Shown here one piece after another: positions 4,777 through 52,550 of a DNA stretch of 64,000 nt. A program made the position numbers and the translations under genes. Within the stretch, counting starts at the first letter, position 1, and each line of letters starts with the position of its first letter. This DNA comes from Candidatus Woesearchaeota archaeon (lineage in GTDB: Archaea > Nanobdellota > Nanobdellia > Woesearchaeales > 21-14-0-10-32-9), in contig JAIPHP010000002.1 in assembly GCA_021735165.1 (NCBI GenBank), positions 5,491 through 69,490 of the forward strand, in the 5' to 3' direction. The notes under the pieces are model-generated. The model saw only the letters and a program-made list of their open reading frames with translations, ran no database searches and was not told the DNA's origin.

Positions 4777-5352
4777 ATGGATAATAAGCTAAAAATTATT
4801 TTATACTTAGCAAATAAAGGAGAAACATTTACTTTGCTAGATTTAAGTAAATCTATCAATATACCCTACGCATCTCTTCACAGAACTGTTGCTAAAATGC
4901 AAGACACAACAGAAATAGAAAGCAAAGGGAAATCTAAATTAATTAAGATTAAATGGAACGAAATTACGAAAGCATACTTGACAATAGCGTCCTACGAAGA
5001 AAAACTTGAATTCATAAAAAAGCACCACATAATAAAAAGAATTGAAGAAAAATCTAAAGATATAACTCTAATCTTTGGAAGTTATGCCAAAGAAACACAA
5101 AATAAAACTAGCGATGTTGATTTGATGATAATTAACAAAACTGGAGAAAAAACAGTAAGTTTCTCTGATTTAGAAATGCTTTACGATATAAAAATAAATC
5201 CTATGTTTTTTACAGAAAAAGAATTCATAGATATGTTGAAGGATAAAGAAGAAAATGTAGGAAAACAAGCACTAAAAGCTCATATTTTGCTATCGGGATT
5301 TTCAGATTTTTGGAGGCTAGTTGAAAATGGAATTTATAAAAGAAAAATATGA
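4777..5352 (+). CDS. Minimal nucleotidyltransferase (MNT) antitoxin with an N-terminal wHTH domain
   Basis: The GSYAKETQNKTSDVDLMII sequence carries the GS...DxD nucleotidyltransferase signature; an N-terminal winged-helix-like segment precedes it. The gene overlaps the downstream HEPN gene by 32 nt. Confidence 0.75.
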   Translation: MDNKLKIILYLANKGETFTLLDLSKSINIPYASLHRTVAKMQDTTEIESKGKSKLIKIKWNEITKAYLTIASYEEKLEFIKKHHIIKRIEEKSKDITLIFGSYAKETQNKTSDVDLMIINKTGEKTVSFSDLEMLYDIKINPMFFTEKEFIDMLKDKEENVGKQALKAHILLSGFSDFWRLVENGIYKRKI

Positions 5353-5842
5353 AGAAAAATTTAAAGAACTAAAAGGACAACACTTAATAGTTAAATCAAC
5401 ATCAACTTTCAAAATAAATCTATTCTTTAAAAAAGCAGAGGCAAGTTTACTAATCGCAATAAATCAAAGAAATCCATCTAAAACTCCAGAAAAAATCTAT
5501 TGGCTACAATGGTCGATAACAATTGCGTACTACGCAATGCTTTATGCAACAAAAGCAATACTTCTAAAAAAAGGCTACGAAGTAAAAACACACGAATCAG
5601 CGCAAATAGCGTTAGGACATTTATTAGTGCCTGATGAATTAGAAAAAGAAGACTTAGAAATACTAAATCAAACTCATAAAATATTCGAAGATGAATATGT
5701 AACATATTTTGAAGACGCAAGAAAAGAAAGTAGTACTGCAAGATACCAAGCAAGACCAAGCTACACAGAAAGAAGAGTAGATGAAATACTCTCAAATGCT
5801 AAGAAATTCATAAATAAGATAAGTGAGATAATAAAAGAATAG
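5321..5842 (+). CDS. HEPN-domain protein, the toxin partner of the MNT
   Basis: 173-aa all-helical ORF overlapping the MNT gene in the classic MNT-HEPN operon arrangement, with R/H-rich C-terminal helices. The Rx4-6H motif is not crisply resolved by eye. Confidence 0.55.
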   Translation: MKMEFIKEKYEEKFKELKGQHLIVKSTSTFKINLFFKKAEASLLIAINQRNPSKTPEKIYWLQWSITIAYYAMLYATKAILLKKGYEVKTHESAQIALGHLLVPDELEKEDLEILNQTHKIFEDEYVTYFEDARKESSTARYQARPSYTERRVDEILSNAKKFINKISEIIKE

Positions 5843-5952: not shown

Positions 5953-8900
5953 TTAAACTATGTAGAATTGTTGGTATGTGTAGTGGTATGGACTGTATGA
6001 GAAGGCGTATTCTTGTTTTAGTGTTATTTGAGGGTATTGTTGGGCGTTGATGAGTTCTTGAATTGAGCCTCTGTTGCTGTGTATTGTTGAGCTTGTTGGT
6101 ATTAGTAGAGAGGTGTAGCCTAGTTTTTTTACCATGGTTTTTGAGTATTGTATAATTTTTTTGTATAGGTTGTCTGGTGATACGCTTGCAAGGATACTTG
6201 ATGAGGGTTGTATTGATGCTATTAAATAAGTGTTTCCTTGTTCTTGTATGGTTCGATAGATTACTCCTCCGCACGCATTTTGTTCTTCGTCAAGTATTAT
6301 CATTAGCCACATATCTGGTTGATTCCATAGTTTGTCGTCTATTGCAACGCATACTCCGAAGTTGAACATTGCTACTGAGTGCATTTTGTGTTTGGTTAGT
6401 ATGAATTTGAAGGGTGTGCCTGTTAGGCTTCGTCCTTCTTTTTTGAATTCGAATTTTGTCATCTCTTTTTGCATATTTTCGTATTGTTCTCCATATAATT
6501 GATTAAATATTTGTTGTACTAGGCTTTTATCTATTATGTTTGAAGAGTTTTGTATTAGGAATTGGTTTATTTGATCTACGTCGATGTTTTCTGGCCAGTT
6601 AATCTCTTGGATGTTGAATCCTTTTGAGTTGATGATTTCTATGATTTTGTTTTCTTTGTTGTTCATGTTGGATTTCCAGATTCCAAAGAGTGTTTTTGCG
6701 AATTGTCTGTAATCTTTATTTGTGTTTGTTAGTACTAGGAATTCGTTTTTGTATTTTTCTTGTGCTTTTGATAACAAGGATAATATCAAGTCATTTCTTA
6801 GTCTGTCTCCTATGAATTCTTTGTATTTCATCAGCGTTTCATGTTCACTGCTAAAGCTTGGTAGTTGGTTTCCTAGTTGTATGTTGTAGGAGTATATGTA
6901 TTTTAGGTATTCTTTTTGTTTATTTCTCAGGTCTCCGTGTAGAAAGTCTGTTAGTATGTGCATTCCGGTTTCTGCTGGGTCTATATGTATTGGTTTTTGG
7001 TTGATTTCTGTTACTGCTTCTACAAGGTTGTTCCATGATTGAGTGTTTACTTCTTCTTTAAGTACAAAGCCTCCTTTAGATATTCTTACTGTTAAGCCGC
7101 TTAGTTTATTTAGCTCTCCAGGTATGTCACTTTGTCTGTCTTGCCTGTTTTGTATTGCTCGTTTATATTGTTGTCTATCTACAGTTACTTCTGGTGCAAA
7201 TACAGAGTATAAGGTGCCTAGAAGTATGTTTTCGTCATAATCCTTGGTCAAATTGCCATCTAAAATTTCTTTTTTTAATTGTTTTACATCTTTGAAAAGT
7301 TTTTCGTAGTGTATATGTTTATCTTCATGAGTTCCTATATAGATGTTTCTGAATTCTGTGTAGATTTCTAGTAGGTAAGCTGGACTGTTTTCAAGGAATT
7401 GTTTTATTATTTCTGCATCATGGCTTATTGGTTTTTGTATGATGTTTTGTTTCAATCCTTCAAGAATTAGGTTATGTAATATGTCTGGTGCTTTTCTTTG
7501 TTTTTTACTTGTAATCCATACTAATAGTTCCAGGTCTTTTTCGTTGTATACTCCTTCGTATTTGGCAATTCCTGAATAACACTCTATGCATATGAATGAA
7601 GCAGGTCCTTGTGATTCTACTGTAGGAATTATTAGTAATGGAAATGTCAATATTTTAAATCGATTAAAATACGGTAGTAGAAGCTCGAATTTACTGAAAT
7701 TTTCCCATTCCGCTCCTTTTGTTTTTTGTAAGATGTGTATAAAATATTCTGTTATTTTTGGTAGATTTTCTTCGTTGATCATATATTTAATTGTAGGCAA
7801 ACCCTCACAAAAGACCACTTTTGTATGTTCTTTTGAAGCTTTGACTATTTGTAATATGTGCGGGAGGGTTTTTTCATTGATTATTTCTTTTATTGAAGAC
7901 AAACCGTGCTTGAAGACGTGGTTTGTTTGATCTCCTGTTAATTTGACCATCTCTACTAAATATGGCAAAGTTTTTTCATTAAGTGCGGGTTTTATTTCGA
8001 GCAAACCATCATTAAAGAAACTGTGTGTTTCACTTCTTATGACCTTAGCTATTTCTACTAAATAGGCCAAAGTTTTTTCAGTAAGCACATCTTTTATTTC
8101 AAGCAAACCATAAAAGAAAAAACCGTTTTTTTCGTCTCCAGCGGCTTTAGATATTTCTGCTAAATAAAATAGTTTTTTTTCGTTAAGTATGTCTTTTATT
8201 TTATGCAAACCCCAATATTTTAAGAAATTAATTGAGTTGAATTTTAAGTATTTGATTAGTTCAGCTAGTGATAGTCCTATGGATAGTATGTTATTTTCGT
8301 TAATAATATTTTTTATTTCACGAAACCCAAACATAAGGACATGTTTTGATAACTCCCCTTCGGCTTTGAATAATTCTGATAGTTGTAGTCCTATAGATAG
8401 TACGTTATTTTGGTTGATTTTGAATTTTACATAATAAAAACTCTTGAGTACAGATTCTGCTTGGTCTCCTGAGACTTTGGCTATTTTTACTAGTTGTAGT
8501 CCTATTGATAGTAAGTTATTTTCGTTTAGTATATCTCTTATTTTAGACAAACCCTTTTCCAAGACTAAGAGCCTATAGTCTCCAGCGGCTTTTACTATTT
8601 TTATTATGTCGGGGAAAGTTTTTTCATTAAGAATATTTTCTATTTGATATGAACAAAAACTTATGACCTCTCCTGCTTGATCTCCCGAGGATTTTACTAG
8701 TTTTACCATGTCAGGCAAAGTATTTTCATTAAGAATATCTACCAGTTCAGGCAAATAATGTTTAAAAACAGATTCTGTTTGATCAACCCCCAAGGCTTTT
8801 ACTAGTTCTACTATGTAGGGCAAAGTTTTTTCATTTAATATCTCCCTTATATCAGGCAAATAAAATTCTAATACATGTGAGTGAATCCACAAGGATTTAG

Positions 8901-26341: not shown

Positions 26342-26719
26342 TTAAAATTTTGTATTGTGTGTTATTATGTCTGTGGTTTCATTTCCAATTTTTATGCTAT
26401 ACTTATTTCCAAATCCTGAGACTTTTAAGGTATCTTTATATTTCAAGCTTTCTTTTATGTTTTTCCAATCACTCATTTTTATGTATGCATATTTGTCTTT
26501 GGTTGTTTTAAAAACTGCGTATTCAAATGAATTCTTATCTATAATTCTTCCTATCGTAAAAACAAGAATGCCAGGCACATTTCCTGGAGCAGGAACATTT
26601 TTATAAGTTTCTTCTGTTTTCAAAAGAAGTTCTGTATTGTTTTTTTCTCCTAATTTACAGCCTCCCACGAGTAGAGAGGTTACAATAGTTCCTATAGATG
26701 CATATGTTTTAAAACTCAT
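26342..26719 (-). CDS. Putative lipoprotein, hypothetical
   Basis: Signal peptide ending in the lipobox-like LLVGGC. Confidence 0.4.
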   Translation of the reverse strand: MSFKTYASIGTIVTSLLVGGCKLGEKNNTELLLKTEETYKNVPAPGNVPGILVFTIGRIIDKNSFEYAVFKTTKDKYAYIKMSDWKNIKESLKYKDTLKVSGFGNKYSIKIGNETTDIITHNTKF

Positions 26720-26760: not shown

Positions 26761-28083
26761 TTAATTCATGCTTTCACTTCCTTTTTTGTATTTGATTAGT
26801 TTTTTATTTTTTGTTTTGTTTATGATTTTATCTGTAAGTTTCCAGCTTTCGTTTAGTTCTGTTGCTCTTATAAATAGTCTTTTTTCTCCTTTTATACATT
26901 CATCAATTATTGTTTCGTATGCTGTCGGCGTATTTCCTTTGAATTCACATGTAGGGCAAAAAAGCATTTGCACTGGTTTTAAGTCCGGAGTTTCTCCGGG
27001 CATTTTGGCATTTATTGTTAATGATATATTTTGCCTTGGTTGAATATCGATTCTTATCTTGTTGGGTGCAGTATTAAAGTCGCAGTATATTGTGCAGGGT
27101 TCTTTTTTGAATTCTAGTTCTATGTATGCTTCATCACTATTCATTTTTTTGCCTGTTTCTAATATTATTTGTGAGTTTTCCCATCTTTTACTTTTTGATT
27201 TAAAAAATATTTTTGAATACGTTTCTGTTTTTGTTTTTTTTCCTAATTTTTTTTCGACTTCTTCTTCATATCCTTCATATTGACCAAGGATGGCTTTTTC
27301 AAATTCGAGTTTTTTTATTGCTCTTGTTTTTTGGTATCTTATTTCGTCTGCATAAGTATTTTTTGGCGGGTCCATCAAGATTAATGAAGCTGTTTGTAAT
27401 AAATGATTTTGTATCATGTCTTTTATTGCTCCAGAACCATCATAGTATTCTAATCTCTGTTCAACGCCGTTAATTTCTTTTGAGACTATTTTTATTTTGT
27501 CTATGAATTTTGAATTCCATATGTTTTCAAAAAAAGGGTTTGATAATCTTAAGCGCAGTATGTTGTCTATTGTTTGTTTTGCCACGTAATGATCTACTTT
27601 GTATATTTGTTCTCTTGTGAAATATTTTTTCATTAGTTTGTTTAATTTTTCCCATGAATTATAATCTGAGCCAAAAGGTTTTTCTATCATCAGTTTTATA
27701 TTTTGATATTTACAGTCTTTTACTATATTGAATATTTTATCAAATAAATTATATGATGTAGCTAAATAATATATTGTCTGATCTGCTTTTTCTTTATGCA
27801 CAAATTCGTAGAATTTTTTCATTGAATTTTTATCAGATACATCCCCTTTGAAGTATTGTATTTTAAGGTTTTTGTTTTTTTTTGGTATGCTCAAATATTT
27901 TTCGTATTGTTGGTTGTCCAGATTTGTTCTTCCTACGCCTATGAGGTTTATTTTGTATTTTTTGTTTGTTGCTAAATTATTTAGTGCAGGAGCTAATTTT
28001 CTTTTTGTTAAATCTCCTGTTCCTCCAAATATTACTATGTTTATCATTTTTTCCACATATTCATTATTACTTGGATATCTCAT
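26761..28083 (-). CDS. zwf: Glucose-6-phosphate 1-dehydrogenase (bacterial Zwf type)
   Basis: IFGGTGDLTKRKLAPAL, IEKPFG, the substrate motif KVDHYVAKQTIDNIL and DMIQNHLLQ. Confidence 0.85.
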   Translation of the reverse strand: MRYPSNNEYVEKMINIVIFGGTGDLTKRKLAPALNNLATNKKYKINLIGVGRTNLDNQQYEKYLSIPKKNKNLKIQYFKGDVSDKNSMKKFYEFVHKEKADQTIYYLATSYNLFDKIFNIVKDCKYQNIKLMIEKPFGSDYNSWEKLNKLMKKYFTREQIYKVDHYVAKQTIDNILRLRLSNPFFENIWNSKFIDKIKIVSKEINGVEQRLEYYDGSGAIKDMIQNHLLQTASLILMDPPKNTYADEIRYQKTRAIKKLEFEKAILGQYEGYEEEVEKKLGKKTKTETYSKIFFKSKSKRWENSQIILETGKKMNSDEAYIELEFKKEPCTIYCDFNTAPNKIRIDIQPRQNISLTINAKMPGETPDLKPVQMLFCPTCEFKGNTPTAYETIIDECIKGEKRLFIRATELNESWKLTDKIINKTKNKKLIKYKKGSESMN

Positions 28084-28766
28084 TTTTGATCTGTTACGAT
28101 TATTGTGTTTTCTATTTCATCTAGTATTTGTTGCGGTATTGTTTTTTCTGTATTGTTAAGATATGATTTTAATGCTTGTTTTTTCTCTTTTCCTAAAAAA
28201 AGTACGAATGCTGTTTTTGTCATTGCTAATGCTCCAGGAACAATACTTATTCTTTTTTTGGGAAGCTTAGGAGAATCTTCAAAGTATTCGTATGCTTGTT
28301 TGTCAGTATATTCTTTTTCAGGAAATATTCCTGCTACGTGCCCATCTTCTCCACTGCTCAGAATTGCTATGTCTATTCTTCCTGCGAATTCTTCGAATTT
28401 TTTCGAGTAATCAAAAGCTGCTTTTTCTCCTGATAATTCCGTTTTTATTCTGTGAACATGTTTATTTTGTATCAAATTCTTGTTTAATAGCGGTTCTAGC
28501 AGTTTTTCTTTTATTGTTTTATAATTGCTTTCATTTGAAGTTATAGGTGCGTATCTTTCGTCTAATATGAAAAAATGACATTTCTGCCATGATTTAATAT
28601 TTTTTTTAGTTAATTCTTCGTACAGTTTTCCTGTGCTTGTTCCGCCAACCAAGCCTATGAATATTTTTTCTTGTTGATTGGCAAGAAATTCTATTTCATC
28701 TGTTATGAATGAAGCAGCGTGTTTTATGAGTTCTTCTCTTTTAGGATATTTTAGTAGTTTCATCAT
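28080..28766 (-). CDS. pgl: 6-phosphogluconolactonase
   Basis: GLVGGTSTGKLYE and SSGEDGHVAGIFP motifs. Confidence 0.75.
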   Translation of the reverse strand: MMKLLKYPKREELIKHAASFITDEIEFLANQQEKIFIGLVGGTSTGKLYEELTKKNIKSWQKCHFFILDERYAPITSNESNYKTIKEKLLEPLLNKNLIQNKHVHRIKTELSGEKAAFDYSKKFEEFAGRIDIAILSSGEDGHVAGIFPEKEYTDKQAYEYFEDSPKLPKKRISIVPGALAMTKTAFVLFLGKEKKQALKSYLNNTEKTIPQQILDEIENTIIVTDQK

Positions 28767-29680
28767 CTGTTCTCTTTCTTTTTTACTCCATGGCCCCCAA
28801 ATTCATCTCTTAGTACAGACACTATTTTTGTTGCAAAATTTTTTTTAGTTTCTGATTTTTCTCTTATTTCCAAACTTTTTTTTATTATGGGTATTTCCAC
28901 ATTATTTTTTTCTGCTTCTTCAACAGTCCATAGACCTTCTCCACTGTGAGGGATAAATCCATCCACGTCTTTCATTCCCGGATGATGTATGAATGCATCT
29001 CTAGCCCATTCCATTAAAGCCCCTCGTATTATGCTTCCGTTATTCCACAAGTCAGATAGTTTTTCCATGTCAAGTTCTTTGAATGGTCCTTCACTTATGA
29101 CGTGAAATCCTTCTCCTATAGCTTGCATCATTCCGTATTCTATTCCATTATGAATCATTTTTACATAATGCCCTGCACCGCTTGGACCAAAATAACCATA
29201 TCCCTTTGGTACGCACATAGCTTTTATTATTGGCTCTATTTTATTAAAGTCAATTTCAGCACCTCCGCACATCATACAATACCCTGTTTTTGCTGCTGCT
29301 AGACCTCCTGATACTCCCACATCAAAATATCGTATTCTTTTTTCTTGAAGTTCTTTTGAACGCCTTATTGTTTCTGTATACTTAGAATTTCCCCCATCTA
29401 TTAGTAAGTCTCCTTCTTCTAAATAAGGCACTATTTTGCTTTTTATTTCATCTACTGTTTTGTGAGGTGTCATCAACCAAATAATTCTTGGTTTTTCTAA
29501 ATTATTTACTAGTTCTTGATAACTCTTTGAAGGTATAGCTCCTTTTTCTTTACTTATTTTTTCTACTTTTTCAGGACTTCTATTATATACAACGACTTCA
29601 TGACCTTTTTCTAGAAGTTTTTCAACCATATTATAACCCATTTTCCCCAAACCCACGAATCCTATTTTCATTTCTTCCAC
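28763..29680 (-). CDS. gnd: 6-phosphogluconate dehydrogenase (decarboxylating), short YqeC-like form
   Basis: Rossmann motif IGFVGLGKMGYNM and a catalytic region GGNSKYTETIRR...GVSGG consistent with 6PGDH. Confidence 0.8.
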   Translation of the reverse strand: MEEMKIGFVGLGKMGYNMVEKLLEKGHEVVVYNRSPEKVEKISKEKGAIPSKSYQELVNNLEKPRIIWLMTPHKTVDEIKSKIVPYLEEGDLLIDGGNSKYTETIRRSKELQEKRIRYFDVGVSGGLAAAKTGYCMMCGGAEIDFNKIEPIIKAMCVPKGYGYFGPSGAGHYVKMIHNGIEYGMMQAIGEGFHVISEGPFKELDMEKLSDLWNNGSIIRGALMEWARDAFIHHPGMKDVDGFIPHSGEGLWTVEEAEKNNVEIPIIKKSLEIREKSETKKNFATKIVSVLRDEFGGHGVKKKENR

Positions 29681-29905
29681 CTAGACTCTTGAATCGTAAT
29701 GTATTTTATATAATTTGTGGGTCATTATTCAGCTAAAAAAGGAATTTTCTAAAAAATCCTTATTTTTTAGTTAACATAATAACTAAATTTAATTTTGCGT
29801 AAAAAAGTTTCGCATTAAAAATTTACAAAATAATTATGTTGCTAATAAGCTAATTAAAAACCTTTAAAAAGTCTGTGTCATATTTTATATTTTAGAGGTG
29901 AGGGT

Positions 29906-32898: not shown

Positions 32899-35800
32899 TC
32901 AGTTAGAAGTTTCTAAAACTTCAAACTCCCAAGAATCTTCGATAAATACTTCATCGTATTGAAAACTTCCATAAACCCTGTATTTTCCAGGGGATTCCAC
33001 AGAAACATTTTTTAAATTCCATCCGTAATATTTTCCAATATCTAGTTTTATTAAATTATTTGCAGAAATATTTACTTTTTCATTTGTAACAATGCGAATA
33101 TTTCTCCAATGGTTTTCAATTTTATTCTGTAAAGCTAAAGTTAAGATTCCTCGTACATCAACATCTCCTGAATTAACTATTTTTGATTGAGGTCTTGGAT
33201 TTCCAAGGGGGACTGAGATATCTTCACAATTATAACAACCTGTATGTTGGGAATCGTGTTGATACATTGGCCAGTCCATTTCTACATCCCTAAAAGGAGA
33301 ATCTAAATTAAAAACCTGAATAAAAGTTTTACGAATGTTCCAATTTACAGAACTAGATATTAATTCATTAAAATTATCTCCTTCAAGATCAAAAACAGAA
33401 TACATACTGATTTCTGGATAAACAATTTTCTTTTCAATAGAGCTGTCTGAGAAATTTGATAAATAAATAAGACTTAAACCTCTAAAAGTAAAATATTTTC
33501 CTATAAACCCATAAATATTGTTCTCAATTTTTCCAAAAAGAACGGGAACTGATTTTACTGGTTCTCCTCCAGAAAAAACAACATTTCCATTTCTATCTAA
33601 GATATAGTTCCAAAAACCTTTTTTTATAGAAATGTTAAGATAATCTCTTTGCTTAAATAAAGAAAGACTTGAAAGATGTCCTGAAGAAACAAATTGAGGC
33701 CAACCTGTTTTTATAGACCCATTTTCTTCGAGGACATAAACTCCATTTCCAAAAACGTTTGGGCGATTCATTTTATTAGTATAAAAAATTATTTCATCAT
33801 ATCCATCTGAATCAACATCACCTATAACTCCAGGTTCAAGAGCAAAACCATTTACATTAACAGGAAATCCTTCAACTAGAGAGCCATCAAAATTAAAAGC
33901 AAAAATTCTTCCCTCGCAATGCCAATTTTCTAGAGTAAACACTCCTTCGTCAAAAACATTTCTTGTTGAAGGCACAACAACCTCGTATTCTGGATCATCG
34001 TCTAAATTAGCAATAAGAGAGCTTGTCTCATATCCGCCAAGTATACCGCAAGAGAAAGAACCATTACCAAACTGTTTATTATACACAATTTTTGGCCATC
34101 CTGGAAGAAAATTTCCATCTAAGTCAAGAACTGCCAATCTCAAAGCGCTTTCTGGAACTCCTTCAAATTCAAAAGAATCATAAACTTTGAGTATTTCAAT
34201 ATTTCCATCTCCATTAAGATCTTTTAAAACAATTAAACTGTTTGGCTGAGAAGAAATCTCTAAAGGAATCTTTCTAATAAGGCTCCCAGATAAATCATAG
34301 ACAAATAAATTATAAATTCCATTTACGACAATTTCTTTCAAACCATCATTATTAAAATCTATAACTGAGGGGGGGCCTATATTTCCTCCCGGAAGTCCAC
34401 CGTTAGATCCTGGAGGGCTATATACATCAACCTCGATTGGAAAGCCTTCTAAACGAGAGCCATCTTCTTTAAATGCATAGACTTTTAGAGGATTTCCCGC
34501 GTAATAAAACAAAATTTCTTTAGATCCATCTCCTTCCAAATCTTCTATAACTGGTTCAACTTTTCCAGGCCAGTAATAAAAATCAAAATTTTGCTCTGTA
34601 TTATCAAGAACTCTAAAATCTTCTGTAGTTGATGTTACTTCCAAATTATTTTCAGAGGATTTGATAAAAACACTCTCATTTCCAAAAGTGTAAAAGGAAA
34701 AAGAATTTCTATTATTGTTAGGGATAAAAGATAAAAAAGTTTTATCTTTAAAAAGCATAAGAGAATCCTGTGAATTTCCTCCAAAAGTTCCTCCTTGCCA
34801 ATCTAATTCTTTCGGCCAGCCTTCTTTCAAAGAAGAGCTAATAAATAGAATAGGGGTGCTTTCGGTAAAGGTTTCTCCAAAAAAATTAAAATTAAAATTA
34901 ATTATATAAAAACCCTCCTGATCTAGAAGAGATGTGTCCCAAGAAAAAAAAGTTTTATTTATTTGAGTTATTCCTACTGCATTTATAATTTGTGAGTTGT
35001 CCATTGAAAATACTTCGAAAGAAGATAATTCGTAATAGGGATTTAAAATGTTAAGAAAAATTGGAATAGTCTCCCCGAACCTATAAACTCCAGGCTCTTT
35101 AGGAGAAATTATTTCAAGGTTGTTTATGGAAAAAATATTCATATCATTAGAAACAATTTGATTTTCTTTGTAAATATTAATCTGTAAAGAATAGTCTCCA
35201 TCCATAAGACGGGTAGTATCAAATTCAGGACATAAAACTCCTTCAATAATCTCTTCTGTTCCCTCACAGATTAATTTTGGTCCACTCAAAGAAGATTCTT
35301 TAGAATAAGTGACTTTGTAGGAATCAAAATTTCCCTTTGCAGTACCTCTAACTTCCAAAATTCCTTCCGAAAAATAGGGAAATTGATCTAAAAAAGCTAA
35401 TGCGCTTTCATCATTTGTATTTAAAAGAGATTCAAAAATATCAATTCTTCCACTACCTTGAATTGTTCTTATTTGATTCAAAGAAACAGCATTATTTCTT
35501 AAAGAGCCTTTCATGTCGAAAGCATTCCAAGTAGGATGTGCTTGTTTTAACAAAGCAACTGCTCCAGAAATAATTGGAGTAGCCATAGAAGTCCCTGCTA
35601 ATTGGACATGATCTTCATCTAAGCAGGGATAATAATATTCGTTTTCTCCTGGAGGAAATATAGAATCATATCTTGCAGCACAAATAATTGCTCCAGGAGC
35701 AACGATATCGGGTTTTATTAACGCCATAATGTTTCCTTCTTCATTTTCCCAAAGAACAGGGCCTCTAGAACTAAAAGAAGTTACCTGATCTACACGAGGA

Positions 35801-37140
35801 TTAAAATCCCAGTAACTTCCATCATAATTTTTCTTATACGTTGCACCAACTGTTATTGCTTTCCTTGCATTTCCAGGACTCATAATGCTTCGTTCATTTG
35901 GACCAGAATTTCCTGAAGCTATGACTGCAACGACTCCTGCATCTACCACATTATCAATTGCAGAACTCATTGGATCATCTGGATTGCCAGAACCTCCCAA
36001 ACTTAAACTAATAACATCCAATTTATCTGAAAAGTCTCCATCTTCATTAGGATCTAAACTTCTTTCAATTGCAGAGATAACATTTCCTAAAGAACCCCCT
36101 CCTAATGAATTCAAAACTTTGTATGCATAAATTTTTGCATCAGGAGCAACACCTTTCAAAACCCCATTTCCAGCAGCAGTTGAAGCAACATGTGTTCCGT
36201 GACCCTGATCATCTATTGGATCTCCATCATCGTTTACAAAATCATAACCCCCAACAACTTTTTCACAAGTTTCGTCTAAAAATTCTTCTGTCGTACAACT
36301 TCCTAAATCTCTGTGAGTATAATCCACTCCTGTATCAATTATCCCAATAATTACATCTTTACCTGTCAAACAATTTTCTTCTTCCAAACAAGGATTAAGA
36401 TTCTCATCTAGTTCCCAAACATCGTCAGCATTGATTAAGGGGATAGAATCCATTAAAAAGGCTGTTACTTCGTAATCAGGATAGATTCTTTTCACACCTT
36501 CAATATTTTTTATTTCTTGAATTTCTGAAGGTAAAAGATCTAAACTTATTCCATTAAACACTTTTGTATAACTTGATTTTATTTCATTATTTGTTTTTTG
36601 CAAAATTTCTGATTTTGTTTGTTCATGTTTTTCTTCCAAATCTAATTTGTAATTTTCTAATCTATCCTCAATGTTTTCTTCTAAAAAAGAATTTTCATTT
36701 TCTTTTGCAAGTTTTTTTAATCTAGAGTATTCTTTAGCCAAAGGTTCTTCTTCAAATTCAACAATATATCCGGAATATTTTGGAGTTTCAAAATCAGAAA
36801 CAGAATCTCCTGTTAAACCTTTCTCCGGAGGGTCTGTTAATTTTATTTGTTCTCCAACAGAGTAAAAATCTTTTAAAGTTGCAAGAGAGATTTTTAGAGT
36901 TTCTGATGTTGCGTATTCATGGTTTTGTGTATTTGTTGGGTTTGTGGCTTGATTTGTTTGTTGTTGATTGTTTTGCTGCGTGTCTTCTTGTTCGAATTCT
37001 ATGTCCATGTTTTGCATTTCTAAGTATTGTGTTGTGCAACTAGTTAGAATAAGAATTGTCAATACAAGTAATGCAGTTATTATTTTGCTTTTATTTGTTT
37101 GTTTTCCTTTCATTTTCCTGCTTGGATTGCAGTTATACAA
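32899..37140 (-). CDS. Large secreted or surface subtilisin-like (S8) serine protease with FG-GAP/beta-propeller repeats
   Basis: Asp/His/Ser triad motifs IGIIDTGVDYTHRDLG, HGTHVASTAAG and GTSMATPIISGAVALL. Multiple DxDxDG/FG-GAP-like repeats are present (DVDSDGYDEIIF, DFNNDGLKEIVV, DLNGDGNIEIL). The N-terminal signal peptide ends in the lipobox-like LTSC. Confidence 0.85.
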   Translation of the reverse strand: MYNCNPSRKMKGKQTNKSKIITALLVLTILILTSCTTQYLEMQNMDIEFEQEDTQQNNQQQTNQATNPTNTQNHEYATSETLKISLATLKDFYSVGEQIKLTDPPEKGLTGDSVSDFETPKYSGYIVEFEEEPLAKEYSRLKKLAKENENSFLEENIEDRLENYKLDLEEKHEQTKSEILQKTNNEIKSSYTKVFNGISLDLLPSEIQEIKNIEGVKRIYPDYEVTAFLMDSIPLINADDVWELDENLNPCLEEENCLTGKDVIIGIIDTGVDYTHRDLGSCTTEEFLDETCEKVVGGYDFVNDDGDPIDDQGHGTHVASTAAGNGVLKGVAPDAKIYAYKVLNSLGGGSLGNVISAIERSLDPNEDGDFSDKLDVISLSLGGSGNPDDPMSSAIDNVVDAGVVAVIASGNSGPNERSIMSPGNARKAITVGATYKKNYDGSYWDFNPRVDQVTSFSSRGPVLWENEEGNIMALIKPDIVAPGAIICAARYDSIFPPGENEYYYPCLDEDHVQLAGTSMATPIISGAVALLKQAHPTWNAFDMKGSLRNNAVSLNQIRTIQGSGRIDIFESLLNTNDESALAFLDQFPYFSEGILEVRGTAKGNFDSYKVTYSKESSLSGPKLICEGTEEIIEGVLCPEFDTTRLMDGDYSLQINIYKENQIVSNDMNIFSINNLEIISPKEPGVYRFGETIPIFLNILNPYYELSSFEVFSMDNSQIINAVGITQINKTFFSWDTSLLDQEGFYIINFNFNFFGETFTESTPILFISSSLKEGWPKELDWQGGTFGGNSQDSLMLFKDKTFLSFIPNNNRNSFSFYTFGNESVFIKSSENNLEVTSTTEDFRVLDNTEQNFDFYYWPGKVEPVIEDLEGDGSKEILFYYAGNPLKVYAFKEDGSRLEGFPIEVDVYSPPGSNGGLPGGNIGPPSVIDFNNDGLKEIVVNGIYNLFVYDLSGSLIRKIPLEISSQPNSLIVLKDLNGDGNIEILKVYDSFEFEGVPESALRLAVLDLDGNFLPGWPKIVYNKQFGNGSFSCGILGGYETSSLIANLDDDPEYEVVVPSTRNVFDEGVFTLENWHCEGRIFAFNFDGSLVEGFPVNVNGFALEPGVIGDVDSDGYDEIIFYTNKMNRPNVFGNGVYVLEENGSIKTGWPQFVSSGHLSSLSLFKQRDYLNISIKKGFWNYILDRNGNVVFSGGEPVKSVPVLFGKIENNIYGFIGKYFTFRGLSLIYLSNFSDSSIEKKIVYPEISMYSVFDLEGDNFNELISSSVNWNIRKTFIQVFNLDSPFRDVEMDWPMYQHDSQHTGCYNCEDISVPLGNPRPQSKIVNSGDVDVRGILTLALQNKIENHWRNIRIVTNEKVNISANNLIKLDIGKYYGWNLKNVSVESPGKYRVYGSFQYDEVFIEDSWEFEVLETSN

Positions 37141-37988
37141 ACAACATTTATTATGTCGTCTACTTTGCAGCCTCTGCTTAAATCATTGACTGGTTTGTTC
37201 AGTCCTTGACTTATTGGACCTATTGCTTTATATCCTGCTAGTCTTTCCACTAACTTGTACGCTATGTTTCCAGAATTTAAGTCTGGAAAAATTAGTATTG
37301 TTGAGTTCCCTCTTATTTCAGAATTCGGATTTTTTTGTTTTGCTATCATTGGTTCTATTGCTGCATCTACTTGTATTTCTCCATCTATAGGTATTTCTTT
37401 ATGGTTTTTTTTAGTAATTTGCACGGCTTTTTTTATTTTTTCTAAACAGGGATGTTTTGCAGATCCTTTCGTGCTGAATGAAAGAAATGCTACTCTTGGA
37501 ATAATATTTAGTTGTTTTGCTGATCTTATAGTTTCTGTTGCTATTTCTGCTAGCATTTCTTCATCAGGGTCTATATTTAACGCGCAATCTGTGAATAAAA
37601 ATGATTTTTTTTCTTCTGCCATCAAAAAATATGTGGATGCTTTTTTGTTTTTTTTTCCTATTATTTTAAATGCTGTTTTGTAAAGTTCCGCTGTTGTAAT
37701 TGTTGCCCCACCTACTAATCCGTCTGCTTTTTCTTGTTTTAGTAATTTTAGTCCTTCTTCTATTCCTTTTGCTTGTATTACTTTTACTTTTTCTAAGTTT
37801 ATTTGGTGTATTCTTGCTTTTCTTTCTATGTTTGCTTTGTCCCCAGTCAATATTATGTTTGCTAAATTCATATCCGTTATTTTTTTTGCTGCTTCCAGTA
37901 TTCTTTGGTCATTGCCTTCTGGCAGAATTATTGTTTTTTGAAGTTTTTTAGCTTTTTCTCTTAATTCTTGTATTATTCTTGGTTCCAT
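37110..37988 (-). CDS. pta: Phosphate acetyltransferase (phosphotransacetylase)
   Basis: Close match along the whole length to short-form Pta: FTDCALNIDPD, PRVAFLSFSTKGSAKHP and GPISQGLNKPVNDLSRGC. Confidence 0.85.
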   Translation of the reverse strand: MEPRIIQELREKAKKLQKTIILPEGNDQRILEAAKKITDMNLANIILTGDKANIERKARIHQINLEKVKVIQAKGIEEGLKLLKQEKADGLVGGATITTAELYKTAFKIIGKKNKKASTYFLMAEEKKSFLFTDCALNIDPDEEMLAEIATETIRSAKQLNIIPRVAFLSFSTKGSAKHPCLEKIKKAVQITKKNHKEIPIDGEIQVDAAIEPMIAKQKNPNSEIRGNSTILIFPDLNSGNIAYKLVERLAGYKAIGPISQGLNKPVNDLSRGCKVDDIINVVCITAIQAGK

Positions 37989-38203: not shown

Positions 38204-38324
38204 TGCGGGGGAAGGGATTCGAACCCTCGAACACACTAAGTGACAGGATGTCTCATACACGTATGAGTGTCATTTTTGGTGAAGCTTAAGTCCTGCGCAT
38301 TTGACCAGGCTTTGCTACCCCCGC
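38204..38324 (-). tRNA. tRNA-Leu(UAA) with a ~35-nt intron
   Basis: The reverse complement gives GCGGGGG-TA-GCAAAGCCTGGTCAAATGC-G-CAGGA-CTTAAG-[intron]-A-TCCTG, then a long variable arm, then GAGGG-TTCGAAT-CCCTT-CCCCCGC-A. Confidence 0.75.
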
Positions 38325-38900: not shown

Positions 38901-40139
38901 TTATTCTGTCAGTAGCGTTTTTATGTCTATTTCTTTGAATAGTTCATAATATTTTTTTACTTTTGGTATGTATTTTCTTGTTTCTTCTGGCAAGTATCCT
39001 GTTTTTAAGTATCTATTTCTGTTTGTTTGTCCTGCGTTGTAATCTATTAGTGCTAGAGTGAATAGTTCGTCTTCGCTGTATCCCTTTCCTTTAAGTTCTT
39101 CATATGAATTTTTAATGTGCATTATTCCTCCTTCCAAGTTTTGATTTATGTCATGTCGATCTACACCTAGTTTTTCTGCTGTGCTTTTTAATAACTGTCT
39201 TAGACCGTATGCTCCCATCCAGGATGTTGCTGTTGGGTTGAACATTGATTCTGTTGCAATTATTGCCATTTCTTTTGCTGGGTCTGTATCGTATTTTTCA
39301 CACAAGTTTAAGAAGTTTGTCGGTTTGAGGACTTTTTTTGCACGATTTAATATTTTTTCAGTAAGTGTTAGTTTTTCATAGTTTCCAGATATTATTTGTT
39401 TTGCTTCTATGAGCGAGTATCCGTTTTCTATTAGATTTTTCTTTTTTATATATTCATATATTGTTTCCTCGGGGTTTTTGTGTTTTTGATTCAAGAATTT
39501 TCTTAGGATTTTTAGCCTACTTTCGAATTGGTCTTTGTTTGTTGCTAAGTATTTTAGTTCTTTTTCATTAAAATCTCTTGTCATTCTTAGTTTGTTTATT
39601 ATTTCTATTTGCTTGAATTGTTTTTTTTCTTTTTTTGTTATTTTTGTTGTTTTATTTCCTGATTTTATTTCTATATATTTGTTAATTGTGTTTTCTAAAT
39701 AGTATTCTTTTAGTATATTGTTTATTTTTGATTCTTCATCTATTTTTCTTATGAATTTGTTTATGTCTTTTTTGAATTCTCTGATGCTTTTGGCTTTTTC
39801 GTTTTTATCGTAGATTATGTTTTGTATTTTATCTTTTATTTCTAGTATTGCATTTTCATCTTTGTAAATTATTGTGCTTAATGATTTTCTTAATGATTTT
39901 TTTAGTTCTTTTATGTTGTCTTGATCTAGTCTGTCGTCCAAGTATTTGTAGTATGTGTTTGTTATTTTCTTTGCTAATTTATCAGGGTTTGTGCTTTTGT
40001 ATGTTTGTACTGGTAGTTGTTTAGCGTTTGCTTCTTGAGGCGTTGTTTGTGTTATTGTTGTTGAGGATATTGGTGTTGTTGCTAGTATTATGCTTAGAAT
40101 TGCTTCATTTAATTTAATCATAATATGGGTTGCAACCAT
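38901..40139 (-). CDS. Lytic transglycosylase (SLT) domain protein, secreted or membrane-anchored
   Basis: C-terminal SLT motifs AIIATESMFNPTATSWMGAYGLRQL and ALIDYNAG. A long lysine-rich region precedes them, and the N-terminus has a hydrophobic anchor. Confidence 0.7.
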   Translation of the reverse strand: MVATHIMIKLNEAILSIILATTPISSTTITQTTPQEANAKQLPVQTYKSTNPDKLAKKITNTYYKYLDDRLDQDNIKELKKSLRKSLSTIIYKDENAILEIKDKIQNIIYDKNEKAKSIREFKKDINKFIRKIDEESKINNILKEYYLENTINKYIEIKSGNKTTKITKKEKKQFKQIEIINKLRMTRDFNEKELKYLATNKDQFESRLKILRKFLNQKHKNPEETIYEYIKKKNLIENGYSLIEAKQIISGNYEKLTLTEKILNRAKKVLKPTNFLNLCEKYDTDPAKEMAIIATESMFNPTATSWMGAYGLRQLLKSTAEKLGVDRHDINQNLEGGIMHIKNSYEELKGKGYSEDELFTLALIDYNAGQTNRNRYLKTGYLPEETRKYIPKVKKYYELFKEIDIKTLLTE

Positions 40140-42054: not shown

Positions 42055-42163
42055 AGCCTCCGGCGAGAATTGAACTCGCGACCTCTACCTTTTTGCTAGC
42101 TGCGTTCAGATATCCTGGCCGCTGCCGTACCAAGGTAGCGCTCTACCGCTGAGCTACGGAGGC
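42055..42163 (-). tRNA. tRNA-Thr(GGU) with a ~37-nt intron
   Basis: The reverse complement gives GCCTCCG-TA-GCTC-AGCGGTA-GAGC-G-CTACC-TTGGTA-[intron]-A-GGTAG-AGGTC-GCGAG-TTCAATT-CTCGC-CGGAGGC-T. Confidence 0.7.
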
Positions 42164-43083: not shown

Positions 43084-43189
43084 GGGCCCGTAGCTTAGCC
43101 TGGTTGGAGCGCTGGTCTTATATGACTACGTTTCACGCGAATAGCTCGAAGAGAGCCAGTGGTCGGGAGTTCAAATCTCCCCGGGCCCA
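43084..43189 (+). tRNA. tRNA-Ile(UAU) (probable) with a ~31-nt intron
   Basis: GGGCCCG acceptor; D-arm GCTT/GAGC; anticodon stem CTGGT with loop CTTATA, then an intron (43123-43153), then A-GCCAG; T-arm GGGAG-TTCAAAT-CTCCC. Anticodon TAT sits at 43119-43121, assuming the canonical intron position. Confidence 0.55.
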
Positions 43190-49431: not shown

Positions 49432-50376
49432 ATGTCTGAAATTAAGATTGGTGGACAAGCAGTGATTGAAGGAGTCACTATGCGCTCCGAGAATTATGTA
49501 TGCACTTCTGTTCGTAAAGAAAATGGAACTATTGTTTCTAAAATCAGAGCTTTTAATTCTGTCTCAAAGAAATATAAACCACTAGGTTGGCCCCTTATTA
49601 GGGGGATGGTAAATCTTGTTGAAATGATGTCCATAGGTTTTTCTGAGCTTCAATGGAGCGGCAATCAAAGTGTTGACGAAAATGAGGAATTATCTAAAAA
49701 AGAGATTTTTTTAACAATAGCAATTTCAATAATATTCGGCGTGGCTTTGTTTAAGTTATTTCCCTGGTTTTTGGCAAATTCTTTATCCAATCTCATGAAA
49801 TCTAATTACTTTATTTTGAATGTAATGGATGGCATTCTTAAAATAATCATTATTTCTTTATATCTGTATTTAATAAGTTTGATGGCAGATGTTAAAACTT
49901 TATTTAGATATCACGGCGCAGAACATAAAGTTGTTAATTGCTATGAACATAAAAAAAAGTTGACACCTAAAAACGCTCAAAAATTTACAACACTACATCC
50001 ACGATGCGGCACAACATTCGTAATTATTGTTTTTGTAGTGAGCATTTTTGTTTACATTTTGCTTCCACAATCGTTGGATTTTTGGAGTAATTTATTGATT
50101 AGAGTATTATTATTGCCTTTAATTGCAGGTATTTCTTACGAAATCATAAGATTTTCTGGGAAGTATTATGAAAAAAATCTTTTCGTTAGAATCGTCATGT
50201 GGCCTGGTTTGCAATTTCAGAAATTAACCACTAGAGAGCCCACGCTTAAACAATTAGAAGTTGCAATTAATTCATTAGTTGTTTGTATGAATAAAGAAAC
50301 GCGGATTAATCCCCGATCTAAAAGACAGAGCATTTTAACAACATTCACGTTTTCAAATTGCGTGCTATCAACCTGA
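49432..50376 (+). CDS. DUF1385 (YqhQ-like) membrane protein
   Basis: YHGAEHK motif plus several transmembrane helices. Confidence 0.55.
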   Translation: MSEIKIGGQAVIEGVTMRSENYVCTSVRKENGTIVSKIRAFNSVSKKYKPLGWPLIRGMVNLVEMMSIGFSELQWSGNQSVDENEELSKKEIFLTIAISIIFGVALFKLFPWFLANSLSNLMKSNYFILNVMDGILKIIIISLYLYLISLMADVKTLFRYHGAEHKVVNCYEHKKKLTPKNAQKFTTLHPRCGTTFVIIVFVVSIFVYILLPQSLDFWSNLLIRVLLLPLIAGISYEIIRFSGKYYEKNLFVRIVMWPGLQFQKLTTREPTLKQLEVAINSLVVCMNKETRINPRSKRQSILTTFTFSNCVLST

Positions 50377-50870: not shown

Positions 50871-52550
50871 TTGCATATTAAGTTGGGAGTTAAAAAAGAG
50901 GTAATATACTTGAGCGATGATATTCTACCTCCGAAAAAACCGGGGTTTGAGGGTCAGAATGACAAAATTGATGCTTTTGCTGATGAAGATTCTAATTTAG
51001 ATACTGGAGATGAATATTTTTCTCAAGACATTCCTCAGGATGAGACAGAAAAGCAAAACATATTTTCCAAATTATTTAAACCAAAGAAGAACAATTCTAA
51101 ACGCGAGATTGCAAAGAAAAATGCTAAGAGTTCTAAAGATACTTTGACTGATGAAGATATCAGTAATTTAAGAAATGCATTTGGCTTAGACAATAAAAAA
51201 GAATCCATTCAAGGCAAATTCGAAGATGCAGTCGAATCTGACGCTTTAGACCAATCAGAAAATTTGATTGGCTTATCTAAAACTAAAGATAAAATTTCAA
51301 CAAATTCAGACAAAATAAACAATTATGTTGATTTTGAAGATAAGAAAAACGAAGATACAGATGCTTGGATTGATGGTTCTGATGATGAGTCACATATTGA
51401 AGAAAGCATGCCAAATTCCGCATCAGAAGAACCTTATGATGAAGAAGACTCTGATTTCACCAGCGATGTTGATGAACACTCTTCTAAAAAAGCCAAAGTT
51501 CAAAAAAACAACACTAAAAATAATGCGGAACAAAATGATGAATTAGACGTTGTTTCTAACCCAAATATTTATTTGAAAGATTTGCATAACGCAGCCAAAA
51601 TTGATCATCAAGAATTAATTGAAACCATTGGCCAAACCATTAATTTTGACGACTCTCAAGATAAAATAATTAAGCACGTAGAAAAAGAAGTCAAGCTTTT
51701 AATTAAAAATAAAAATAAAGAGCTCAGATCTGTTTTAAAAACTTCTATGGATAAAATAAAAAAGCAAAGTACTGAATTGAATGCTAAAATAAAAAAACTT
51801 AATGCTGAAACTAAAAAAAATAAGAAAGAAAGAGAAAAAGCCAATACCGAATTAAAAAAATTTTCGGATTCACTAAAAGAACTTAAGAAGCTTAGCAATG
51901 ACGAAGAAAAGATGAAAAAAAATAAGGAAAAACTAAAAGAAGAAATTGTTAAATTAAATGAAAAAAAATCAAAGTTAAAAGAAAACCTTAAAAATGCAGA
52001 AGAAGAAGAACATGTTTGGAACATCAATGCCGAAAAAGCAGAGAAATTATTCAAAGCAAAACAAGAGAGATTTTCTGGAGAGATTAATTCTTTGGCAGAT
52101 AAATTGTCTGAAATTTCTCAAAATGCAGACAAATTATTTGTAAAAATTGAAGCAAAAGCCAAGTTTATTACTGAAAAAGAAAAAGAATATGAAAAACTTG
52201 TAAAAGAAGAAGAAAAACTTTTGGAAATGCTTAAAGAAGAACCTGATCAAAAAGAAAAAAACGTGCTTGCTGAACATTCCGTTTTGGCAAATTCTAATTC
52301 TGGTTCAATATTCGAAAATAGTCCGGATGTTGATTCTGAAGATTTTGGAGAAGAAGATATCTTGCATAAAAAAATAGACGATCTTAGGCAATTAGTAGAT
52401 GAATATGAACTTGAAGATGCTAAGCTTTTGTATAATGAACTAGTTGAAGAAGTAGAAACTTCTAATTATGCTGAAGACTATAAGGAACACGTAAGAAAAA
52501 CCCTTAAAGAAATTTATGAAGATATTGTTCTAAGACTCATACCCCAATAA
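50871..52550 (+). CDS. Acidic coiled-coil hypothetical protein
   Basis: 559 aa with a D/E-rich N-terminal half and a long K/E coiled coil. The listed frame begins at a non-ATG codon. Confidence 0.45.
   Translation: MHIKLGVKKEVIYLSDDILPPKKPGFEGQNDKIDAFADEDSNLDTGDEYFSQDIPQDETEKQNIFSKLFKPKKNNSKREIAKKNAKSSKDTLTDEDISNLRNAFGLDNKKESIQGKFEDAVESDALDQSENLIGLSKTKDKISTNSDKINNYVDFEDKKNEDTDAWIDGSDDESHIEESMPNSASEEPYDEEDSDFTSDVDEHSSKKAKVQKNNTKNNAEQNDELDVVSNPNIYLKDLHNAAKIDHQELIETIGQTINFDDSQDKIIKHVEKEVKLLIKNKNKELRSVLKTSMDKIKKQSTELNAKIKKLNAETKKNKKEREKANTELKKFSDSLKELKKLSNDEEKMKKNKEKLKEEIVKLNEKKSKLKENLKNAEEEEHVWNINAEKAEKLFKAKQERFSGEINSLADKLSEISQNADKLFVKIEAKAKFITEKEKEYEKLVKEEEKLLEMLKEEPDQKEKNVLAEHSVLANSNSGSIFENSPDVDSEDFGEEDILHKKIDDLRQLVDEYELEDAKLLYNELVEEVETSNYAEDYKEHVRKTLKEIYEDIVLRLIPQ

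Follow-up and report, generated by a model that had tools for sequence, protein, structure and literature searches.

An intact gnd-pgl-zwf operon for the oxidative pentose phosphate pathway, probably an old acquisition from Bacteria, in a Woesearchaeal genome

We analyzed a 64,000-nucleotide stretch of DNA (64 kb; hereafter the window) from contig JAIPHP010000002.1 of a Candidatus Woesearchaeota archaeon (GenBank assembly GCA_021735165.1), and found an intact three-gene operon, gnd-pgl-zwf, for the oxidative branch of the pentose phosphate pathway (PPP). The three genes overlap one another, carry the expected motifs, share the native composition of the window, lie in a block that is syntenic with a divergent relative, and encode proteins that belong to a Woesearchaeal clade. 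Judging from these sequences, we consider it highly probable that this is a functional, translationally coupled Woesearchaeal operon with a role in pentose and NADPH supply, and that it goes back to a single old acquisition, most likely bacterial, followed by vertical inheritance.

Operon structure and protein families

The ORF listing of the window gave gnd, pgl and zwf as three consecutive open reading frames (ORFs) on the minus strand, in the gene order gnd-pgl-zwf. The first gene, gnd (28763..29671, 302 amino acids), encodes a short-chain (~300 amino acids) decarboxylating 6-phosphogluconate dehydrogenase (6PGDH); the second, pgl (28080..28766, 228 amino acids), a 6-phosphogluconolactonase; and the third, zwf (26761..28083, 440 amino acids), a short form of glucose-6-phosphate 1-dehydrogenase (G6PD). 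At both internal junctions, ...AGATGATGAAA... and ...AAAATGAGATAT..., the ATG of the downstream gene overlaps the TGA of the upstream gene (ATGA), a classic signature from which we infer translational coupling of gnd, pgl and zwf. A second in-frame ATG of pgl, at 28763, is the start used by NCBI. For gnd, the ORF finder returned a longer version (28763..29680, 305 amino acids) that starts with a GTG at 29680. This GTG lies inside a Shine-Dalgarno-like GGTGG (29681-29677), so the true start is probably the ATG at 29671; the NCBI product also has 302 amino acids. The intergenic region upstream of gnd (29672..29905, minus strand, read by eye) is common to a divergent P-type ATPase gene and contains a TATA-like TTATATAAAA at 29713-29704, ~38 nucleotides ahead of the gnd ATG. 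The resulting layout is TTATATAAAA-N22-GGTGG-N5-ATG; given a genome of ~30% GC, AT-rich motifs of this kind carry no statistical weight. A preliminary description of this DNA had proposed three co-oriented, overlapping genes for Zwf, Pgl and a short Gnd; the ORF coordinates, the family scores given below and the ATGA junctions bear this out and confirm the intact three-gene operon.

A further ORF of 125 amino acids (26342-26719, minus strand) lies 41 nucleotides downstream of zwf, possibly on the same transcript as the operon. Its N-terminus (LLVGGC) is lipobox-like and Pfam gave no match; the ORF is present in an independent Logan assembly and absent from the syntenic relative L092, both of which are described below.

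Zwf matched both domains of the canonical G6PD family in Pfam, G6PD_N (PF00479; 3.3e-34, 119.5 bits versus a cutoff of 22.1) and G6PD_C (PF02781; 4.3e-71, 239.8 bits versus a cutoff of 27), and is therefore a canonical Zwf, as had been proposed, and not of the haloarchaeal Azf type. The two motifs named in the preliminary description were both found, EKPFG at 134-138 and DHY(L/V)xK as DHYVAK at 164-169 (within VDHYVAK, 163-169), together with GGTGDL at 19-25 and DMIQNHLLQ with H227. In an alignment of 32 sequences, residues G20, T22, G23, D24, L25, E134-K135-P136-F137-G138, D164-H165, K169 and H227 were invariant, and the motifs aligned to the GxxGDL fingerprint, EKPFG, IDHYLGK and QNHLLQ segments of solved G6PDs (best match 1.6e-59). 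We take the H227 position in QNHLLQ to be the catalytic histidine, the roles of the motifs being those known from the Leuconostoc and human enzymes. R52 (GVGRT) aligned with an arginine of solved G6PDs, which presumably binds the 2'-phosphate of NADP+. Taken together, these features allow a glucose-6-phosphate dehydrogenase activity to be predicted for this protein. The description of Zwf as "bacterial-style" holds for the family, which is bacterial and eukaryotic, but not for the subfamily, which is short (~440 amino acids), divergent and set apart from 74+ typical bacterial Zwf. The protein lacks ~50-70 residues relative to typical enzymes (~60-70 relative to typical bacterial Zwf), and it shares 28-37% identity with the latter (among the GTDB matches listed, all bacterial).

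Pgl matched Glucosamine_iso in Pfam (9.9e-42) and passed the equivalog model TIGR01198 (133.5 bits versus a cutoff of 124.45). NagB was considered as an identity for this middle gene and rejected, as TIGR00502 gave 56 bits versus a cutoff of 236.9 and all NagB models scored far under their cutoffs. Its closest solved relative was the Thermotoga maritima Pgl (1vl1/1pbt, 9e-26), with GGTS, DERY and GEDGHVAG conserved in the alignment.

Gnd carries NAD_binding_2 and 6PGD domains (Pfam), is ~300 amino acids long and lacks the C-terminal duplication of the 470-amino-acid Gnd. It passed NF007161 (367.4 bits, cutoff 271) and TIGR00872 (337.5 bits, cutoff 297.2), while the long-form models TIGR00873 and NF006765 scored under their cutoffs, and the models for HIBADH and tartronate-semialdehyde reductase scored far under theirs. 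The closest solved relatives were the short-chain 6PGDHs 4e21 and 6vpb (1e-63). Gnd keeps GLGKMG, YNRS and GAGHYVKMIHNGIEYG; the last of these holds the catalytic lysine and glutamate and aligns to 4e21 and 6vpb. For both Gnd and Pgl, the alignments to these structures (4e21, 6vpb and 1vl1/1pbt) are full length with the catalytic motifs conserved. All catalytic motifs checked across the three proteins are intact, and the operon appears complete and functional, as the preliminary description had suggested.

The window Gnd differs from the solved short-chain enzymes at the position that discriminates between cofactors. After the second beta-strand it has YNRS, where the solved enzymes have YDL or FDR, that is, N-R-S in place of D-L or D-R. 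We take N-R-S/T to be the pattern of NADP-specific (long) 6PGDHs, and NADPH production by Gnd is therefore likely. The cofactor names of the NCBIfam models that match Gnd disagree with one another, and TIGR00872 is named NAD+-dependent. The haloarchaeal route described by Pickl and Schonheit reportedly leads, like the one proposed here, from glucose-6-phosphate to ribulose-5-phosphate as its net conversion, and its 6PGDH is likewise a short Gnd-type enzyme.

Archaeal context, composition and conserved neighborhood

The window encodes ELP3, ZPR1, PTH2, SepF, eIF-6, prefoldin, a RecJ/DHH protein, Kae1, archaeal Nre, TFIIE-alpha and a type IV prepilin-like peptidase, and archaeal genes lie within a few kilobases on either side of the operon on one contig. 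Its Zwf is identical to a protein on a 73-kb contig of an NCBI metagenome-assembled genome (MAG) named "Candidatus Woesearchaeota archaeon". Rfam identified seven tRNAs in the window, of which a default ARAGORN run reported only three (74-76 nucleotides). The other four are 106-132 nucleotides long (2130-2261, 38204-38324, 42055-42163 and 43084-43189) and match the full 71-position Rfam tRNA model, which indicates intron-sized insertions. The marker genes, the tRNA insertions and the identical Woesearchaeota Zwf agree with the earlier statement that the genome is archaeal and place it in Woesearchaeota (DPANN).

Could a bacterial fragment have been joined to an archaeal MAG during assembly or binning? 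DPANN MAGs are often contaminated, and some Zwf labeled as DPANN stand in bacterial-looking contexts, such as contig L087 with GroEL/GroES and NrdR. In this case, however, archaeal markers flank the operon on both sides of the same contig and composition is uniform along the window. An independent Logan assembly (SRR12088349) reproduces the order ATPase-gnd-pgl-zwf-ORF125-PTH2 with the same junctions, which excludes a chimera, and the same neighborhood recurs on L092, a contig from a different JGI record. Contamination or chimerism was rejected on the strength of the Logan assembly and the L092 neighborhood, and we assign an artefact of this kind a negligible probability.

The composition of the operon is native. 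Its GC content (0.28-0.35) and GC content at third codon positions (0.21-0.23) match those of other window genes, and a sliding-window composition profile showed no step along the window. By distance of codon usage to the rest of the window, the operon genes rank 14, 15 and 25 of 46 window genes. The preliminary description had proposed a comparison of GC and codon usage as a check for transfer; this comparison gave no sign of it. The operon is flanked by housekeeping genes, not by mobile elements.

The neighborhood is also conserved in a divergent relative. L092 (a 59.8-kb contig, JGI metagenome record 3300009702) encodes a Zwf only 49% identical to that of the window, and there the operon occupies the same place in a collinear block. 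This 16-gene block (window 17169-41827, L092:1244-19493) runs in the order DHH, phosphate acetyltransferase (PTA), P-type ATPase, gnd, pgl, zwf, PTH2, RimB-like protease, RimK, ZPR1, SepF and ELP3, and continues with two HIT proteins, an A24 peptidase and a cis-prenyltransferase. The 16 gene pairs share 37-78% amino acid identity, and the operon proteins fall within that range (Gnd 69%, Pgl 53%, Zwf 49%). Relative to L092, the window block has as extra genes a 1413-amino-acid subtilase, a GNAT gene, a DUF218 gene and the 125-amino-acid lipoprotein-like ORF. The position of the operon in this shared block argues that it was at this site already in the common ancestor of two divergent Woesearchaeota. 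The order gnd-pgl-zwf is likewise kept on L085 (a 620-kb Woesearchaeota contig) and on L086, where ribosomal protein L37ae and prefoldin flank it; the operon has evolved as a unit.

Phylogeny and origin of the operon

The nearest homologues of all three window proteins are named Woesearchaeota proteins (72% identity for Zwf, 80% for Gnd and 63% for Pgl). As a bacterial reference set we used a GTDB scan performed with the Zwf alignment, which returned at least 80 loci, all bacterial among the matches listed. In a tree of 199 Zwf sequences, the window protein belonged to a clade (bootstrap 97) made up of 52 cluster representatives, which holds every named Woesearchaeota among the closer matches (P0002, P0008, P0013 and P0038). 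All 78 bacterial references used fell in a separate clade of 88 (bootstrap 91), with 74 GTDB bacterial Zwf forming one block. The Pgl tree (45 sequences) grouped the query with L092 and relatives (bootstrap 100), as sister to L085 and Marinimicrobia, and placed 22 bacterial Pgl in a separate clade (bootstrap 98). In the Gnd tree (135 sequences), a Woesearchaeal group of 36 (bootstrap 60) sat within a larger one of 79 (bootstrap 99) whose labeled members are Chloroflexota, Solirubrobacterales, Deltaproteobacteria, Nitrospirae and Acholeplasma, with sequences from the CPR (Candidate Phyla Radiation) outside. The topologies obtained for Gnd and Pgl agree with that for Zwf, and all three proteins group with named Woesearchaeota.

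Since Bacteria stand on both sides of the Woesearchaeal Gnd, a bacterial origin is the economical reading, and an ultimate bacterial origin of the operon is likely. Comparison with bacterial loci points to homologous systems of somewhat different build. Clustering of oxidative PPP genes was common in the bacterial loci sampled (n = 80), and the clusters found there, gnd-zwf-pgl in Bacteroidota and short gnd-zwf in Chloroflexota, Actinomycetota and Acholeplasma, are made of homologous enzymes and are tight and co-oriented like the operon of the window. The short-chain Gnd of the window is 50-52% identical to many bacterial proteins. However, in the 80 loci the order gnd-pgl-zwf was confined to clusters with a long Gnd (L033 and L066), whereas the window has a short one.

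The operon also occurs in one group of Bacteria. Two Zwf/Gnd clusters carry the NCBI label Marinimicrobia, and their operons lie on contigs L082 (10001-12903) and L091 (5399-8299). These have the same gene order as the window and an overlap at the gnd-pgl junction. Unlike in the window, the host is a bacterium of the FCB group: the flanks of the two mutually syntenic contigs are of FCB-group type, with the type IX secretion system domain Por_Secre_tail, Fib_succ_major, Bac_transf and a response regulator, and the GC content of the operon is 49-52%, equal to that of its flanks. Marinimicrobia proteins are the nearest non-archaeal relatives of all three window proteins (Gnd 64% and Zwf ~45% identity). 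The Zwf tree placed Marinimicrobia as a clade (n = 8, bootstrap 100) within a subclade of Woesearchaeal sequences (n = 22, bootstrap 98). In a concatenated Zwf and Gnd tree with nine bacterial outgroups, Marinimicrobia paired with the Woesearchaeal group of P0008, P0013 and P0012 at 100%, and the other archaeal operons fell outside this pair. For each of the three proteins, Marinimicrobia is nested in the archaeal clade, and it therefore looks like a recipient and not a donor. These neighbor-joining (NJ) trees, with few labeled leaves, suggest an old transfer of the whole operon from an archaeon into Marinimicrobia. We hold as possible, at slightly less than even chances, the joint proposal that a Woesearchaeote passed the operon to Marinimicrobia, where it was later inherited vertically and took on the composition of its host, and that short Zwf proteins falling under cutoffs leave the oxidative branch under-reported in Woesearchaeota.

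The case that this archaeon acquired a bacterial operon horizontally in recent times draws on the bacterial type of the enzymes, which are rare in Archaea, on bacterial-like genes nearby (PTA, an SLT transglycosylase and a DUF1385 gene) and on the presence of the same operon in Marinimicrobia at the identities given above. We regard it as very unlikely, because the composition and codon usage are native, the 16-gene block is collinear with L092 despite a Zwf identity of 49%, the nearest homologues of all three proteins are Woesearchaeal, and Marinimicrobia falls inside the archaeal clade and not outside it. Native composition, synteny with L092 and membership of the Woesearchaeal clade together argue against a recent transfer, and on these sequence data the operon is old and vertically inherited in the Woesearchaeal clade, its acquisition being ancient. 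The horizontal acquisition proposed in the preliminary description therefore survives as an ultimate bacterial origin, given that Gnd is nested in Bacteria (bootstrap 99), but not as a recent import. That description had named placement of all three proteins in a vertically inherited archaeal clade as the result that would speak against acquisition; all three do fall in a Woesearchaeal clade, but for Gnd this clade is itself nested in Bacteria.

Several related loci showed other arrangements. On L087 (9110-11293, Pacearchaeota-labeled), zwf follows a phosphoribosyl pyrophosphate (PRPP) synthetase gene, and the contig, besides the GroEL/GroES and NrdR genes mentioned above, has a 137-nucleotide tRNA with an intron-sized insertion. 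On L088 (8001-17401, a 1.56-Mb contig), a zwf-pgl-LCM-gnd cluster is followed a few kilobases downstream, past four unannotated genes, by rpiB, rpe and tkt. Pgl (PF01182) and Zwf are joined in one protein in P0075, P0087 (687 amino acids) and P0080 (a 565-amino-acid partial sequence, Nanohalarchaeota in NCBI); these fusions form their own clade (bootstrap 100) apart from the window Zwf clade. A Gracilibacteria Zwf (L015:3266-4723) appears split into three ORFs under code 11, which fits UGA recoding (code 25) in that CPR lineage better than a pseudogene.

Predicted role and significance

In the scheme that we propose, transcription would start in the intergenic region common to the divergent P-type ATPase gene, and translation of Gnd, Pgl and Zwf would be coupled. 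Zwf would oxidize glucose-6-phosphate to 6-phosphoglucono-lactone, Pgl would hydrolyze the lactone to 6-phosphogluconate, and the short-chain Gnd would convert this to ribulose-5-phosphate and CO2, for a yield of two NAD(P)H per hexose, probably NADPH. The non-oxidative branch, taken here from the literature, would then turn ribulose-5-phosphate into ribose-5-phosphate for nucleotides and into fructose-6-phosphate and glyceraldehyde-3-phosphate for lower glycolysis. By this route hexose carbon could reach lower glycolysis in organisms that usually have no phosphofructokinase. It might continue to acetate through PTA, whose gene (37110-37988) lies in the same syntenic block, a position that fits fermentation to acetate. 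The enzyme activities, cofactor choice and direction of flux in this scheme are inferred, as is the bacterial donor in the proposed history, in which one old acquisition, most likely from Bacteria, would have been followed by vertical inheritance of the operon as a unit in the Woesearchaeal clade.

The genes may instead be real and serve another role, such as feeding an Entner-Doudoroff pathway, acting on another hydroxy-acid substrate (in the case of Gnd) or balancing NAD(P)H and redox only. The NAD+-dependent name of TIGR00872, a Zwf score under the equivalog cutoff, the presence of other beta-hydroxyacid dehydrogenases among the relatives of short-chain 6PGDHs, and the possibility that pentoses in DPANN derive from nucleoside salvage (PMC9563170) would all be compatible with this. 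We consider it unlikely, as Gnd is well above two 6PGDH-specific cutoffs and far below those of HIBADH and tartronate-semialdehyde reductase, and the three genes co-evolve as one unit. Furthermore, edd and eda were not found in the window or in the flanks of the relatives L085, L086 and L092, and zwf in other lineages clusters with rpiB, rpe, tkt or PRPP synthetase genes, which fits a role in pentose metabolism. Neither hexulose-6-phosphate synthase nor 6-phospho-3-hexuloisomerase, the enzymes of the ribulose monophosphate (RuMP) pathway, was found among the scanned ORFs of the window.

Some results weigh against a functional pentose- and NADPH-producing operon acquired once from Bacteria. On the side of function, Zwf scored below the NCBIfam equivalog cutoff of TIGR00871 (342.7 versus 400.6 bits), with 440 amino acids against a model of 486 positions. 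Presumably because it is short and under this cutoff, NCBI labels it, like several of its relatives, as a "hypothetical protein". A preference for NADP is suggested by the YNRS and GVGR motifs only. The 64 kb window yielded no gene for glucokinase, a sugar transporter, pgi, pgm, tkt, tal, rpi or rpe, and it lends no support to the host-derived glucose-6-phosphate that the preliminary description had considered. On the side of history, the trees are unrooted NJ trees on MAFFT alignments (Kimura-corrected distances, 100-500 bootstraps) in which most metagenomic leaves have no taxon label. The Zwf of other DPANN (Pacearchaeota, Nanoarchaeota and two more Woesearchaeota) lie on an unresolved backbone (bootstrap <50) and are polyphyletic; as DPANN Zwf are not monophyletic, the tree does not allow the donor to be named or the acquisitions to be counted.

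Other features of the window deserve mention. A class I tRNA synthetase gene (Glu/Gln-type, 316-1989, minus strand) is its strongest codon-usage outlier (root mean square deviation 0.303, r = 0.47; others <=0.21) and the GC skew of its region is extreme (-0.45), which may reflect high expression or foreign origin. Bacterial-looking neighbors include the PTA gene (PTA_PTB, minus strand), a DUF1385 protein (49432-50376, plus strand) and a 412-amino-acid protein with an SLT lytic transglycosylase domain (38901-40139, minus strand), possibly for attack on bacterial cell walls. The 1413-amino-acid subtilase (32899-37140, minus strand), encoded between the ATPase and PTA genes, looks secreted and has an I9 propeptide and FG-GAP repeats. 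A Fic/DOC-domain protein (3457-4461, minus strand) adjoins an overlapping nucleotidyltransferase-HEPN gene pair (4777-5842, plus strand) that looks like a toxin-antitoxin module. No Pfam match (E <= 0.001) was found for the ORFs at 5953-9465 (minus strand, 1170 amino acids), 50871-52550 (plus strand, 559 amino acids) and 11192-12283 (minus strand, 363 amino acids).

Reports of canonical oxidative PPP genes in Woesearchaeota and Nanohaloarchaea go back to 2012-2015, and a bacterial origin of DPANN PPP enzymes has been discussed before. According to PMC5864196, a complete PPP was reported in Woesearchaeota (Castelle et al. 2015) and in Nanohaloarchaea (Narasingarao et al. 2012). The published DPANN pathway comprises the same three enzyme families as the window, but the homologue labeled Nanohaloarchaeota has Pgl and Zwf fused and falls in another Zwf clade. 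The PPP was found complete or near-complete in ~42% of DPANN genomes, including Woesearchaeota (Li et al. 2021, PMC8407392). The same study proposed that the DPANN PPP compensates for missing Pfk, inferred a bacterial derivation for transketolase and transaldolase, and found the RuMP enzymes HxlA/HxlB in 89.1% of Altiarchaeota and absent in other DPANN groups. The non-oxidative branch occurs in most Woesearchaeota (PMC8421398), and several surveys put weight on this branch alone (PMC8421398, PMC10936187). Most surveys describe Woesearchaeota as having no other branch. A 2024 study names zwf, devB and gnd in the legend of its metabolic map of Woesearchaeota MAGs (PMC11606122). The Haloferax glucose-6-phosphate dehydrogenase Azf is described in PMC12525153, citing Pickl and Schonheit 2015, as non-homologous and archaeal in origin; Azf lies outside the G6PD_N/G6PD_C family, whereas the enzyme of the window is a canonical G6PD. 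Given the published reports on the DPANN PPP, the operon and the general evolutionary reading are already known.

What the window adds is a clean example of a "bacterial" pathway that has long been resident and is syntenically fixed on a Woesearchaeal chromosome. Its short Zwf is missed by automated annotation, and this may bias metabolic reconstructions of DPANN. As short Zwf proteins fall under curated cutoffs, the oxidative branch of the PPP in Woesearchaeota may be systematically under-reported.

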